From a virus (Duplodnaviria > Heunggongvirae > Uroviricota > Caudoviricetes): a stretch of DNA of 4,369 nt. Shown one piece after another: positions 1,927 through 4,369 of the stretch. Position 1 is the first letter of the stretch, and the number at the start of each line of letters is the position of its first letter. The translations under genes and the position numbers were made by a program. The notes beneath the pieces were generated by a model that was not told where the DNA came from, did no database searches, and worked only from the letters and a program-made list of their open reading frames with translations. Location of the stretch: IMG/VR virus record IMGVR_UViG_2703719355_000024; one strand, given 5' to 3'.

Positions 1927-1953
1927 TAAAACCCACCGTCAGGTGGGTTTTTT
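1927..1953. terminator. bidirectional rho-independent terminator shared by the convergent Panacea operon and the repressor gene
   Basis: AAAA (1927-1930), stem ACCCACC (1931-1937), loop GTCA (1938-1941), stem GGTGGGT (1942-1948), then a T-run from 1949. The flanking A-tract and T-tract allow function in both directions. The repressor stop codon (complement of 1939-1941) lies in the loop. Confidence 0.8.
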
Positions 1954-2748
1954 GTTGTCTCTGCTATCGAGAAGGAAGTTCAATTTTTCCTCTATTTCTT
2001 TAAGCTTGAGATAAAGTAATTCTTTCTCGGTTCTGGCATTTTCAGCTATAAAATCCTCTGCTTCATCCAACGTATTTTCGCTATCTCTTATCGAGTGCAG
2101 CGGGGTTTTTAACAAATCAATTTGTGCATGAATAGCTACAGCAATGATTTCCATATCATCACTGATTTCCAACATCGGGTACGCTGGATTAAGTGGTTTT
2201 AAGTAAAAATGCCCCTGATCTCTTATTAGTTGCTTGAAGGTGGTTTCAAATCCATTGCAACACAGCACGAAGTCTCCTGGTTTGGCCTGAATATCCGGAT
2301 CAAAGCAGACAGTGTAGCCATCCGGGAAGCTAATTCCAGAAGATGATGTCATTGAATGCCCTGTAACCACTAACGCAAATGCATTATTCCCGGCACATAA
2401 CGGGGCAGGGATAAAGTCTATAGGAGTAATGTCGCTTGGAAATTTTCCTCCTTTAGGATAGGAATTTGATAGGTGCGAGAATACGGGGATCTCTCTGACT
2501 GTTACCGTTCTCTGTATTGAGCTAACATCAGGCCCCTCACCAACACCGATAGCTAACCATTCTGTTGTTGTCCCTAAAGTAGCAGCCAGATTTCGTAACA
2601 CAGCGTCCCTTGGCTTGGAATCTCCTGCTTCATAGGCTGCTATTTGCCTTCTTACGATGCCAACCTTATCAGCTAACTGACCTTGAGTCAGCCCCATGGC
2701 AGCGCGAGCGATAGATATACGCTTAGGAAATGAATCGTCAAATTTCAT
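1939..2748 (-). CDS. lambda CI / P22 C2-type repressor: N-terminal HTH (XRE/Cro-C1 type) plus C-terminal S24 (LexA-like) peptidase domain, with an additional ~55-residue charged helical C-terminal extension
   Basis: Start taken as ATG at 2748-2746 with SD AAGGA 6 nt upstream; the ORF-track start at 2805 has no SD and would overlap the candidate divergent promoter. HTH: ISIARAAMGLTQGQLADKVGIVRRQIAAYEAG. S24 domain: GHSM (Ser nucleophile) and TFKQLIRDQGHFYLKPLNPAYPMLE, very close to lambda CI [26 protein letters not shown] and P22 C2 [24 protein letters not shown] as recalled from memory. Confidence 0.85.
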   Translation of the reverse strand: MKFDDSFPKRISIARAAMGLTQGQLADKVGIVRRQIAAYEAGDSKPRDAVLRNLAATLGTTTEWLAIGVGEGPDVSSIQRTVTVREIPVFSHLSNSYPKGGKFPSDITPIDFIPAPLCAGNNAFALVVTGHSMTSSSGISFPDGYTVCFDPDIQAKPGDFVLCCNGFETTFKQLIRDQGHFYLKPLNPAYPMLEISDDMEIIAVAIHAQIDLLKTPLHSIRDSENTLDEAEDFIAENARTEKELLYLKLKEIEEKLNFLLDSRDNKKPT

Positions 2749-2770
2749 ATGTGATCCTTTAAAGTTCACA

Positions 2771-2799
2771 TTGACACATTCAAATTCATGGCAAATAAT
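2771..2799 (+). promoter_or_regulatory. candidate sigma70 promoter for the arc-like/antirepressor operon (Pant analogue)
   Basis: TTGACA at 2771-2776, 17-bp spacer, AATAAT at 2794-2799, about 50 bp upstream of the arc-like start. Flanked by repeated TGTGA/TCACA half-sites that could be operators. Confidence 0.45.
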
Positions 2800-2848
2800 T
2801 GGCATGAGTTTGTGATGATGTGTGATTCAAAAATACATGAGGTGAATA

Positions 2849-3022
2849 ATGGAACAGAAGAAAAAAGATATCAAGCCTATCTCCTACCGCCCAAGTGCTG
2901 AAGTGCGTGAGTTTTTGGAAGGTAACGCAGCTAAAAGCTACCGCTCAATTCAGGGAATGCTTGATTTCTTTATGGCAAGAGTGATGGAGATGGAGAGGAA
3001 AGGTGAAATTGTCATCCATTAA
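2849..3022 (+). CDS. arc: Arc-like ribbon-helix-helix transcriptional repressor (57 aa)
   Basis: Not in the supplied ORF track (below its length cutoff). ATG at 2849 with GAGG at 2839-2842; stop TAA at 3020-3022. Protein [57 protein letters not shown] aligns by eye with P22 Arc as recalled: a basic beta-strand (FNLRWPREV vs ISYRPSAEV), the RS motif, and RVME in helix B. Sits directly upstream of the antirepressor-like gene, as in P22 immI. Confidence 0.7.
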
Positions 3023-3093
3023 AAATGTTGAAGCCCCAACTGCTGCAACAGTCAGGGCTTCGGTATCAACAAAACTTACGAGGTATTATTGAT

Positions 3094-4023
3094 ATGTCAA
3101 GCTTAGCAAAGTCAACTGTAAATTGCACTAACAGCATCACCATTTCAGACGTCAAGATTCATATGGATTCAGAGGGGCGTTACTCGCTTAATGACCTGCA
3201 CAAGGCATCAGGTAAAGAGCGTCGTCATGAGCCTGCTGCGTGGCTGCGACTAGAACAAACCAATGAGTTAGTTCAAGAAATTCTAAATACACAGATGTGT
3301 GTATTTAAAAATGGCGATAACTTTAATTCTTCAGAATCGCAGATTAAGAAGCCAATGGACTCTAAGAAGGGTCGCTACGGAGGCACCTACGTGTGCAAGG
3401 AGCTTGTTTACTCCTACGCCATGTGGATTAGCGCAGCCTTTGCGCTGAAGGTTATCCGTGCATATGACGCAATGGTTACTACCACACAAGAGAGGAAGGC
3501 TATTGGCGGTAAAACTTCAGTAGCTGAACGCACACCGCTACGCGATGCAGTAAACATGCTGGTAGGAAAGAAAGGGCTTCGCTATGACGATGCATACAAT
3601 ATGGTTCATCAGCGTTTTGGTATTGACAGCATTGATGAACTTTCAATTGAACAAATCCCGCTGGCCGTAGAGTACATCCACAGGGTAGTGCTTGAAGGTG
3701 AGTTCATCGGCAAACAAGAGAAGAAAACCAACGAGCTTTCTGCAAAAGAAGCAAACAGCCTTGTATGGTTATGGGATTATGCCAACCGCTCACAGGCATT
3801 ATTCCGCGAATTGTATCCGGCGCTAAAACAAATTCAATCGAACTATTCCTGCAGATGCTACGACTACGGTCATGAGTTCTCGTATGTTATTGGAATGGCG
3901 AGAGACGTTTTAATAAACCACACACGAGATGTTGATATCAATGAGCCAGACGGACCAACGAATCTTTCCGCATGGATGAGACTTAAGAATAAAGAATTAC
4001 CTCCTTCAGTACATAACTACTGA
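3094..4023 (+). CDS. KilA-N domain protein, putative antirepressor (functional analogue of P22 Ant)
   Basis: ATG at 3094 with GAGG at 3080-3083. The in-frame ATG at 3025, 2 nt after the arc-like stop, has no SD but cannot be excluded. N-terminal region has KilA-N hallmarks ([53 protein letters not shown]). Followed by a strong intrinsic terminator. Position between the arc-like gene and the tailspike matches P22 ant. Confidence 0.75.
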
Positions 4024-4041
4024 CAGATAACCAACGCAACG

Positions 4042-4065
4042 ACCCAGCTTCGGCTGGGTTTTTTT
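4042..4065 (+). terminator. rho-independent terminator downstream of the antirepressor-like gene
   Basis: Stem ACCCAGC (4042-4048), loop TTCG (4049-4052), stem GCTGGGT (4053-4059), then a T-run to 4065. Confidence 0.8.
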
Positions 4066-4123
4066 ATGCCCAAAATTCACCGTAGCCATGCTGCGGCGAT
4101 TCCTTGTATCTGGAGCAAATTAA

Positions 4124-4369
4124 ATGACAGACATTACAGCCAATGTTGTGGTAAGCATGCCTTCGCAACTCTTCACTATGGCGCGTTCTTTTAAAGCCGT
4201 AGCCAATGGCAAAATTTATATCGGAAAAATTGACACTGACCCGGTAAATCCTGAAAACCAGATTCAGGTTTATGTAGAGAACGAAGACGGTTCTCACGTT
4301 CCTGTTTCGCAACCAATCATCATTAACGCTGCTCGTTATGGTGAGTTTGATGACTACCCGCTGAAGTGA
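4124..4369 (+). CDS. tailspike protein N-terminal head-binding region (P22 gp9-like); only 81 codons before an in-frame stop at the window edge, so possibly truncated, remnant, or a module junction
   Basis: ATG at 4124 with GGAG at 4112-4115. The first ~70 residues ([70 protein letters not shown]) match the P22 tailspike N-terminus as I recall it. The sequence then diverges ([11 protein letters not shown]) and ends at TGA 4367-4369. Confidence 0.8.

Follow-up and report, generated by a model that had tools for sequence, protein, structure and literature searches.

Results

A CI-like repressor gene in the mnt slot of a P22-type immI region

Here, we describe Rep, a CI-like protein encoded in a 4,369-nucleotide stretch of DNA from a virus of the Caudoviricetes (IMG/VR record IMGVR_UViG_2703719355_000024; the whole stretch is referred to as the window), and argue that it is probably the repressor of the antirepressor operon next to it. 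The window is the "ant moron" of a P22-like phage, i.e., the immI region from gene 16 to gene 9. Rep is encoded on the minus strand (1939..2748; 269 amino acids [aa] plus stop codon) and comprises an HTH_3 domain, a linker with a degenerate cleavage loop, an S24 domain, and a C-terminal tail. A divergent control region of 100 bp (2749..2848) separates rep from a plus-strand gene for a 57-aa protein (2849..3022; phrog_10182), which is the first gene of the ant operon. This gene is followed by the sar antisense RNA on the minus strand (3026..3092), which matches Rfam family RF00262 over its full length (62.3 bits against a gathering score of 43; E=1.3e-11), and by the plus-strand antirepressor gene ant (3094..4023), which encodes a 309-aa protein with KilA-N and P22_AR_C domains (E=7.5e-30 for P22_AR_C).

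The layout of the window, rep(-)/100 bp/57-aa gene(+)/71 bp with sar/ant, parallels that of P22, mnt(-)/90 bp/arc(+)/68 bp with sar/ant. As in P22, sar is complementary to the ant translation-start region and lies directly ahead of the ant start codon; the P22 locus, which served as positive control, scored 97.8 bits at the equivalent place. In a pairwise blastn comparison with Salmonella phage Emek, the window is 99.3% identical over 682-1953 and 86% identical over 3021-4332, and rep, the control region, and the small gene (1954-3020, 1067 bp) replace Emek orf61-orf69-orf77-mnt-arc-orf73. These breakpoints place rep in the mnt slot, with the two junctions of the cassette at two terminator hairpins. 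The left junction is a GC-rich hairpin with T-runs (1928..1951) that lies between rep and a convergent 139-aa open reading frame (ORF), overlaps the rep stop codon, and is a probable bidirectional terminator; the right junction is the terminator hairpin of sar (3030-3061).

The rep ORF is intact, and the identical 269-aa protein is named "LexA family protein" in RefSeq (WP_053897320). Pfam assigns residues 14-65 to HTH_3 (E=1.6e-11) and residues 117-206 to Peptidase_S24 (E=1.3e-17). Residues 1-72 (2533..2748, minus strand) form a five-helix helix-turn-helix (HTH) DNA-binding domain of the 434/lambda type, which matches the DNA-binding domains of 434 repressor and Cro in phmmer searches against the PDB and in Foldseek, and in which the recognition helix VRRQIAAYE is nearly invariant among homologues. 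The S24 peptidase-fold core spans residues 117-209 (2122..2400, minus strand) and holds Ser132 (codon 2353-2355) in GHSM and Lys172 (codon 2233-2235) in TFKQL, and the family-specific tail spans residues 210-269 (1942..2121, minus strand) with a variable linker, a conserved heptad helix, and the terminal residues NKKPT. An AlphaFold2 model built from 79 homologues has a mean predicted local distance difference test (pLDDT) score of 90.9 and consists of five N-terminal helices, an S24 β-core, and a long C-terminal helix. The ATG start codon at 2748 is backed by the conserved N-terminus of the homologues, MxFDDSF, and by an AAGGA Shine-Dalgarno (SD) sequence. The longest ORF (288 aa; protein cluster P0001) starts at 2805, 19 codons upstream of this conserved N-terminus, and because it crosses the -10 of the divergent promoter, the 2805 start is probably an over-extended call in some records. 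A megablast search of the rep region against 50,697 phage records gave zero matches, and BFVD and PADLOC searches with Rep returned generic CI/HTH matches only.

Self-cleavage loop and catalytic centre of Rep

A phmmer search of the PDB with Rep returned lambda CI as the top match (3bdn, E=2.5e-20), and Foldseek superimposed the C-terminal domain of Rep on lambda CI (1f39 and 1kca) with a root mean square deviation of 0.9-1.1 Å, a TM score of 0.9, and 42-43% identity; a resemblance of Rep to CI-type repressors by chance is excluded. In the HMMER alignment, EIPVFSHLSNSY of Rep lies over EYPVFSHVQAGM of lambda CI, which puts Asn95-Ser96 (2461..2466, minus strand) at the scissile Ala111-Gly112 of lambda CI. 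In the same alignment, GHSM of Rep corresponds to GNSM of lambda CI with Ser132 at lambda Ser149, and TFKQLIRDQGHFYLKPLNPAYPM covers the catalytic Lys of lambda CI with Lys172 at lambda Lys192; the codons of all four Rep residues were read directly. The PVFSH strand preceding the cleavage loop is common to the two proteins. A MAFFT alignment of Rep with lambda CI, P22 C2, 434 CI, LexA, and UmuD gave identical columns, and its lambda columns concur with the HMMER alignment.

A first-pass annotation of this gene, made from the sequence alone, had described a CI/C2-type protein with a Ser-Lys dyad in which Asn-Ser replaces Ala-Gly at the lambda scissile position, and both alignments bear out this description: neither Ala-Gly nor Cys-Gly stands at the scissile position in the comparison with lambda CI, P22 C2, and LexA, and neither is present in Rep 35-40 residues ahead of the Ser, where Asn95-Ser96 is found instead. 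The only nearby Ala-Gly, A119-G120 in LCAGNN, was correctly placed by that annotation 13 residues ahead of Ser132. We rejected it as a relocated cleavage site because it aligns with KASDSAF of lambda CI, which is the start of a core strand outside the cleavage loop; the A-[GSN]-[ED] pattern at A119-G120 is found in cleavable CIs, too. In the AlphaFold2 model, the loop after PVFSH has the lowest confidence of the linker and S24 domain (pLDDT 75-83). In LexA, replacing the P1' Gly is the classical way to abolish cleavage, and the Foldseek matches of Rep include two such non-cleavable variants, LexA G85D (1jhf) and LexA G91D (8b0v).

A search of 5.8 billion proteins yielded the 79 Rep homologues, which are 28-60% identical to Rep and come from Yersinia, Pantoea, Klebsiella, Cronobacter, Lonsdalea, Proteus, Providencia, Xenorhabdus, Morganella, Rosenbergiella, Shewanella, and others. 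The scissile columns read Ala-Gly in 11 of them, four of which are tail-less and are the most distant matches, while the other seven bear the tail and fall into three scattered clades. P1 is Ala in about half of the homologues, and P1' can be I, R, K, M, A, F, E, S, H, T, or others. We counted parsimony changes per column on a neighbour-joining tree of the homologues (209 columns; median 17 changes). P1' (Ser96) changed 34 times, which is the 85th percentile, and P1 (Asn95) 23 times, compared with one change at Gly130, three at Ser132, none at Met133, three at Phe171, and six at Lys172. The strand leading into the cleavage loop (REIPV) is conserved. Ser or Lys was lost in nine homologues, and Ala-Gly is absent from all nine. 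Thus, the scissile bond evolves like an unconstrained linker while the architecture of the active site is kept.

Asn-Ser at the scissile position together with the variable P1' of the family suggests that Rep is unlikely to undergo canonical RecA-stimulated self-cleavage and that such cleavage is dispensable family-wide, a reading of the alignments that does not imply proof of inactivity. The first-pass prediction of a RecA-noncleavable repressor is, thus, plausible at the canonical site and is strengthened by the excess of P1' changes over the column median.

The C-terminal tail

The first-pass annotation had also pointed out an extra helical tail of ~55 residues. In our alignment, 60 residues (210-269) lie beyond the last residue aligned to lambda CI, and they are mostly helical in the AlphaFold2 model (helices 217-222 and 224-264; pLDDT 95-97 over residues 241-260). 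Of the 79 homologues, 73 have a tail of 41 residues or more. Its conserved helix (residues ~241-264, nucleotides 1957-2028) is marked by L245, K/R248, L249, I252, E253, K255, L256, L259, and L260, and the hydrophobic a/d residues (L/I) at 245/249/252/256/259/263 follow a 4-3-4-3-4 heptad spacing. Residue 248 is basic (Arg in 61 and Lys in 9 of the 73 tails), Glu253 is kept in 57 of 73, and the two positions lie five residues apart, as do the partners of a g-e' ion pair in parallel coiled coils. Basic residues also mark the C-terminus, which frequently reads exactly NKKPT. The most economical reading of this pattern is that the tail may be a coiled-coil oligomerisation helix.

None of the Foldseek matches is a solved structure that covers the tail. 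Homology to the tetramerisation domain of Mnt, which has a similar end (KKTT compared to KKPT), was considered and rejected on an hhalign comparison with the 73-sequence profile (E=0.31, probability 0.2%). A phmmer search with the 60-aa tail alone against 1.84 billion representatives gave one spurious match (E=1.7e-4) and, thus, no evidence for a mobile module on other proteins.

The divergent control region

The 100-bp control region contains a rightward σ70 promoter with TTGACA at 2771-2776, a 17-bp spacer, and AATAAT at 2794-2799, i.e., 11 of 12 consensus positions, and this promoter aligns in all 22 loci compared. A dyad, TCATGGCAA-ATAA-TTGGCATGA (2786-2807), overlies the promoter -10; a second one, ATGTGA-N11-TCACAT (2749-2771), lies over the SD sequence and start codon of rep; and TGTGA-type repeats are found downstream of the -10 at 2810-2825. 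We regard these dyads and repeats as candidate operators. Other loci also have dyads near the -10, although of different sequence, and tandem ATGAGT/TGTGA-like repeats at ~+5 to +25. Across the 22 control regions, promoter and SD sequence align, and the dyads and repeats are assignable neither to Rep nor to the small protein. Both 2749-2825 and the 21 control regions aligned with it contain recurrent 6-7-mers of the ATGTGA/ATGAGT type. An inverted copy overlaps the -35 (TTGAC[A/T]CAT), and ~33-50 bp further downstream there are one or two copies in direct orientation, an arrangement reminiscent of the heptad-repeat operators of ribbon-helix-helix (RHH) proteins.

A search for the LexA box CTGT-N8-ACAG with at most one mismatch found none in 2749-3093 and one at 1679-1694, which is no more than expected by chance. 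Control of the ant operon by a LexA box was, therefore, rejected.

The 57-aa protein

No Pfam family, including Arc, matched the 57-aa protein. Its pattern K-P-x-x-Y-R-x-x-x-E-V-R-x-F-L...[YR]RS-x-Q... resembles the strand, helix A, GRS turn, and helix B of Arc and Mnt. In a profile search against the PDB, CopG-family RHH proteins came out on top with a weak match (E=0.17), and an hhalign comparison with Arc was similarly weak (E=1.2e-3, probability 19%). The AlphaFold2 monomer is an extended-helix-loop-helix structure with a pLDDT of 69, and a Foldseek search of the PDB with this model matched nothing. The protein is likely an Arc-like RHH regulator.

Spread and synteny of the module

To describe the spread of the module, we compared the window with 21 further loci (three individual loci, sixteen genome loci, phage JEP4, and a second Shewanella contig), which come from Klebsiella, Shewanella, Lonsdalea, Pantoea, Yersinia, Rosenbergiella, Xenorhabdus, Tatumella, Morganella, Providencia, and phage JEP4. 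In all 21, the gene for the Rep homologue is divergent from and 89-105 bp away from the gene for a 56-67-aa homologue of the small protein, and a gene for Ant (P22_AR_N with or without P22_AR_C), Rha, or a KilA-type protein starts ~70 bp after the small gene. These modules lie in P22-like ant morons and in head-tail or tail clusters of sipho- or myovirus-type prophages. The cargo gene differs between loci (Ant, Rha, KilA-N), with rep and the small gene constant, as would be expected of a controller rather than of a specific target. A tblastn search of phage records found one true module homologue, in phage JEP4; its Rep is tail-less and labelled "repressor protein C2." At the gathering score, sar was not found in any of 20 other Rep loci; RF00262 was detected only in the window and P22, and we, therefore, rejected the idea that sar belongs to the module universally.

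Prophages that carry the module have a separate primary immunity region. One of them (L006) encodes a 229-aa CI with Phage_CI_repr and S24 domains, a Cro-like protein, and N, and the prophage of Escherichia coli EcE.CRE.COL (NZ_CP191804) encodes N, a LexA-family CI, a Cro-like protein, and CII. A 99%-identical copy lies inside an apparently complete prophage. Of 5426 complete E. coli genomes, 7 carry this Rep allele.

The immC repressor of the EcE.CRE.COL prophage (L026, 11761-13636) is a 234-aa protein with GDSM...K and no obvious Ala-Gly (GEAILGVDG), and its gene is followed by a gene for an "SDH family Clp fold serine proteinase"; this combination suggests that the prophage may use a non-canonical induction route, too. 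The P22-like prophage of E. coli CU37RT-2 (L027, NZ_CP082774, 2564-7193) has two antirepressor modules in tandem. The first encodes a Rep homologue with Ala-Arg at the scissile position, a 57-aa protein, a P22AR_C protein, and an ORF6N protein, and the second encodes ClpP-like, Mnt-like, Arc, and Ant proteins. The two modules would act as parallel controllers, and a Rep module, thus, coexists with Mnt.

Flanking genes and genomic setting

The window begins with the C-terminal fragment of gene 16 (1-354) and ends with the head-binding N-terminus of a P22-type tailspike (4124-4369). Gene 16 is followed by a minus-strand ORF for a 109-aa membrane/coiled-coil protein (355-684; phrog_5962, function not known), which has a hydrophobic N-terminal segment and is otherwise coiled-coil-like; it occupies the position of sieA in P22 and could encode a membrane protein of the superinfection-exclusion type. 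A plus-strand gene pair follows at 1053-1926. It encodes a 149-aa protein with a Panacea/SocA antitoxin domain (PF13274, E=1.9e-24) and, 4 bp downstream, the 139-aa partner, which matches phrog_8366 and, weakly, PADLOC NsnC (E=5.9e-6) and NCBIfam MAG6450 (E=0.023). The pair is 99% identical to orf149/orf161 of phage Emek and is possibly a PanA-type toxin-antitoxin or defence pair.

The ant gene is mosaic. Where the window has a KilA-N N-terminal part (3110-3689), EcE.CRE.COL (L002) has another "antirepressor N-terminal domain"; from 3690 on, in the P22_AR_C part, the two copies are homologous again, and the two modules are otherwise 98% identical. In E. coli Z1323CEC0010 (L001, 19992-24339), the window is a stranded P22-like piece of ~4.4 kb, preceded by the tail-fibre and NleG effector genes of a lambda-like prophage and followed by dacD; in this piece, gene 16 lacks its N-terminus and the tailspike its C-terminus.

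Discussion

Here, we consider it probable that Rep is the maintenance repressor of an immI-type antirepressor operon, i.e., a functional analogue of Mnt built on a CI-like HTH-S24 scaffold with a decayed self-cleavage loop. In this model, Rep would dimerise via its S24 domain, as CI and LexA do, and bind the 100-bp control region at one or more dyad operators overlapping the strong rightward promoter, and in a lysogen it would silence the operon of the small gene, sar, and ant. The heptad helix of the tail would most likely oligomerise, either reinforcing the dimer or forming a dimer of dimers as in LacI and Mnt, and would allow cooperative occupancy of several sites. The 57-aa RHH-like protein would take the role of Arc in negative feedback, sar would damp ant translation, and Ant, once made, would inactivate the primary CI/C2-type repressor(s) encoded elsewhere. 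Because the scissile Ala-Gly is lost in Rep and most homologues and a LexA box is absent, the module would, like Mnt, not be wired directly to RecA*/SOS. A conserved promoter that matches the consensus at 11 of 12 positions also fits a promoter that needs repression rather than activation. Domain content, the replaced scissile dipeptide, the tail, synteny, sar, the promoter, and the cassette swap are directly observed; we infer the DNA targets of Rep, repression, non-cleavage, and the role of the tail.

Three observations make it more likely that Rep represses the ant gene than that it is a target of Ant: the mnt slot, the three-gene synteny in 21 of 21 loci, and the separate immC CI/Cro pair. 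The first-pass annotation had instead implied that Rep is a prophage repressor that fits the locus because the neighbouring antirepressor would inactivate it. This part of the annotation is not supported, as the gene is in the mnt slot, divergent from the RHH-like gene, sar, and ant, in prophages that carry their own CI/Cro.

Several observations weigh against the model. The catalytic centre is strongly conserved, and a purely structural role of the S24 domain would not obviously need it. Ala-Gly is kept by seven tail-bearing homologues, and some members of the family may, therefore, still cleave. The RHH assignment of the 57-aa protein is weak (CopG E=0.17, Arc probability 19%, pLDDT 69, Foldseek empty), and the link between Rep and the promoter is one that we infer. 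Moreover, the recognition helix is nearly invariant yet the dyad at the -10 varies from locus to locus, which suggests that Rep may bind the conserved TGTGA/ATGAGT-type repeats. Finally, the module is stranded beside a lambda-like prophage in the genome of the window itself and may not be in use there.

The conserved catalytic centre raises the speculative idea, to which we give little weight, that the S24 domain remains a working Ser-Lys peptidase for which its own loop is no substrate. Rep might then be cut at another bond or might act in trans on some other protein, for example a co-resident CI-type repressor, the RHH protein, or Ant. In another version of the idea, an occupied active-site cleft together with the coiled-coil tail might form a sensor of a signal other than RecA*. 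If true, either scenario would represent a previously undescribed input to antirepressor expression and, hence, prophage induction. The Rep homologues are in any case a natural experiment in S24 evolution, in which drift of the scissile bond goes unchecked and the catalytic centre is retained. They make the role of the Ser-Lys dyad after loss of self-cleavage directly testable, and this conservation of the Ser-Lys centre in the face of a changing scissile bond is to us the most interesting point.

Of the alternatives to Rep as an Mnt analogue, one keeps it a lysogeny repressor: a RecA-insensitive protein that is inactivated by the adjacent antirepressor according to the logic of Gifsy, 186, and N15, with the tail as docking site. 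The missing scissile Ala-Gly, the adjoining ant gene, and the 42-43% identity between the C-terminal domains of Rep and lambda CI all speak for it. P22 Ant acts on CI/C2-type repressors, and as Rep is CI-like, it could be Ant-sensitive, too, which would give positive feedback. Pairing of non-cleavable repressors with antirepressors is, moreover, established for Gifsy prophages (PMC3121763). However, rep lies in an ant moron of the late operon and not in immC, carrier prophages hold a separate CI/Cro pair, the cargo varies among Ant, Rha, and KilA-N while rep and the small gene are constant, and antirepressors of the Gifsy type are LexA-controlled whereas a LexA box is absent here. We, therefore, regard this explanation as improbable. 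Slightly less credit still goes to Rep as a RecA*-responsive SOS sensor that cleaves itself at a non-canonical bond, so that DNA damage would derepress ant directly. The conservation of GxSM and the catalytic Lys well above background, the conserved REIPV strand, P1 Ala in about half of the homologues, and the three scattered tail-bearing clades with Ala-Gly are what such a sensor would be expected to have. Against these stand Asn-Ser in Rep itself, a family P1' that includes I, R, K, M, F, E, H, and T, the classically non-cleavable nature of P1' Gly substitutions (LexA G85D and G91D), the low confidence of the loop after PVFSH (pLDDT 75-83), and the nine homologues without Ser or Lys, all of which are also without Ala-Gly.

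Two further explanations find even less support. A divergent transcription factor (TF) and small ORF (smORF) have the geometry of documented TF-smORF induction modules (Silpe et al. 2023, PMC10432266), and the fold assignment of the small protein is tentative; Rep might, thus, be an activator that switches on the small gene, the product of which would inactivate CI together with Ant. Yet a conserved promoter so close to the consensus should need no activator, the arrangement and the SD sequence with start codon (GAGGTGAATAATG in the window, GAGGTGAATATG in P22) match those of P22 arc, sar and ant come next as in immI, and the described modules are found in linear plasmid-like phages at other loci (PMC10432266), all of which renders an activator quite unlikely. 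That Rep is a decaying, nonfunctional CI remnant that lost its cleavage site by drift is, in our view, very unlikely. The truncated gene 16 and tailspike that flank the module in the source genome and the rarity of the allele (7/5426 complete E. coli genomes) would agree with decay, but the ORF is intact, homologues of 254-306 aa with 40-55% identity occur in many genera and conserve the HTH domain, S24 core, tail helix, and synteny, and a 99%-identical copy lies in an apparently complete prophage. Altogether, Rep as the repressor of the ant operon remains the explanation that we favour.

Antirepressor modules decide the timing of induction of prophages, including co-resident ones, and their controllers are poorly known beyond Mnt/Arc of P22 and the LexA-controlled cases. 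The two-gene cassette of Rep and the 57-aa RHH-like protein would be a widespread controller, placed in front of differing antirepressor genes in prophages of at least 10 genera. Our literature searches found no description of the HTH-S24-tail Rep family, the 57-aa protein, or the cassette. The database labels "LexA family protein" and "repressor C2" invite the wrong inference that Rep is an SOS-cleavable lysogeny repressor.

Among the closest known systems is immI of P22 (mnt-arc-sar-ant), with which the window shares the slot between gene 16 and the tailspike, a divergent repressor, a control region of 90-100 bp, a small first gene, sar, and ant, as well as a strong promoter of the TTGACA type and the SD sequence GAGGTGAAT before the small gene. 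Both the "ant moron" and its high flux have been described before, and Villafane et al. (2008, PMC2629481) noted that control of ant has to differ in some P22-like phages. By contrast to P22, in which Mnt is an 83-aa RHH tetramer, the repressor here is a 269-aa HTH-S24 protein with a tail that is not Mnt-like, the small protein is not a member of the Pfam Arc family, and the module is also found outside P22-like phages, in tail or head clusters of sipho- or myovirus-type prophages. The likeness of the tail to the C-terminal oligomerisation helices of LacI and Mnt lies in a short heptad helix on a flexible linker after a dimerising core, which could by analogy join dimers.

With lambda CI, P22 C2, 434 CI, and LexA, Rep shares the HTH N-terminal domain, the S24 fold, the Ser-Lys dyad, and the PVFSH strand; it differs from them in the absence of the scissile Ala-Gly and in the 60 extra residues of the tail. 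Its gene sits at a secondary immunity locus, in contrast to those of lambda CI-type repressors, and it would presumably act on a single antirepressor promoter in place of PL/PR. In Gifsy, as well as in coliphage 186 with Tum and N15 with AntC, inactivation of the repressor is likewise decoupled from self-cleavage, with an antirepressor as the effector. The repressors of Gifsy-1, -2, and -3, however, are proteins of ~136 aa without an S24 domain, and the antirepressor genes are LexA-controlled (Lemire et al. 2011, PMC3121763), whereas Rep keeps its S24 domain, is not encoded at immC, and lies in a module without a LexA box. In TF-smORF modules, the TF activates a counter-oriented small ORF in linear plasmid-like phages (Silpe et al. 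2023, PMC10432266). The module described here resembles them as a counter-oriented TF/small-ORF pair in a prophage that would feed into CI inactivation; however, it has a near-consensus promoter, and its layout copies that of P22 immI.

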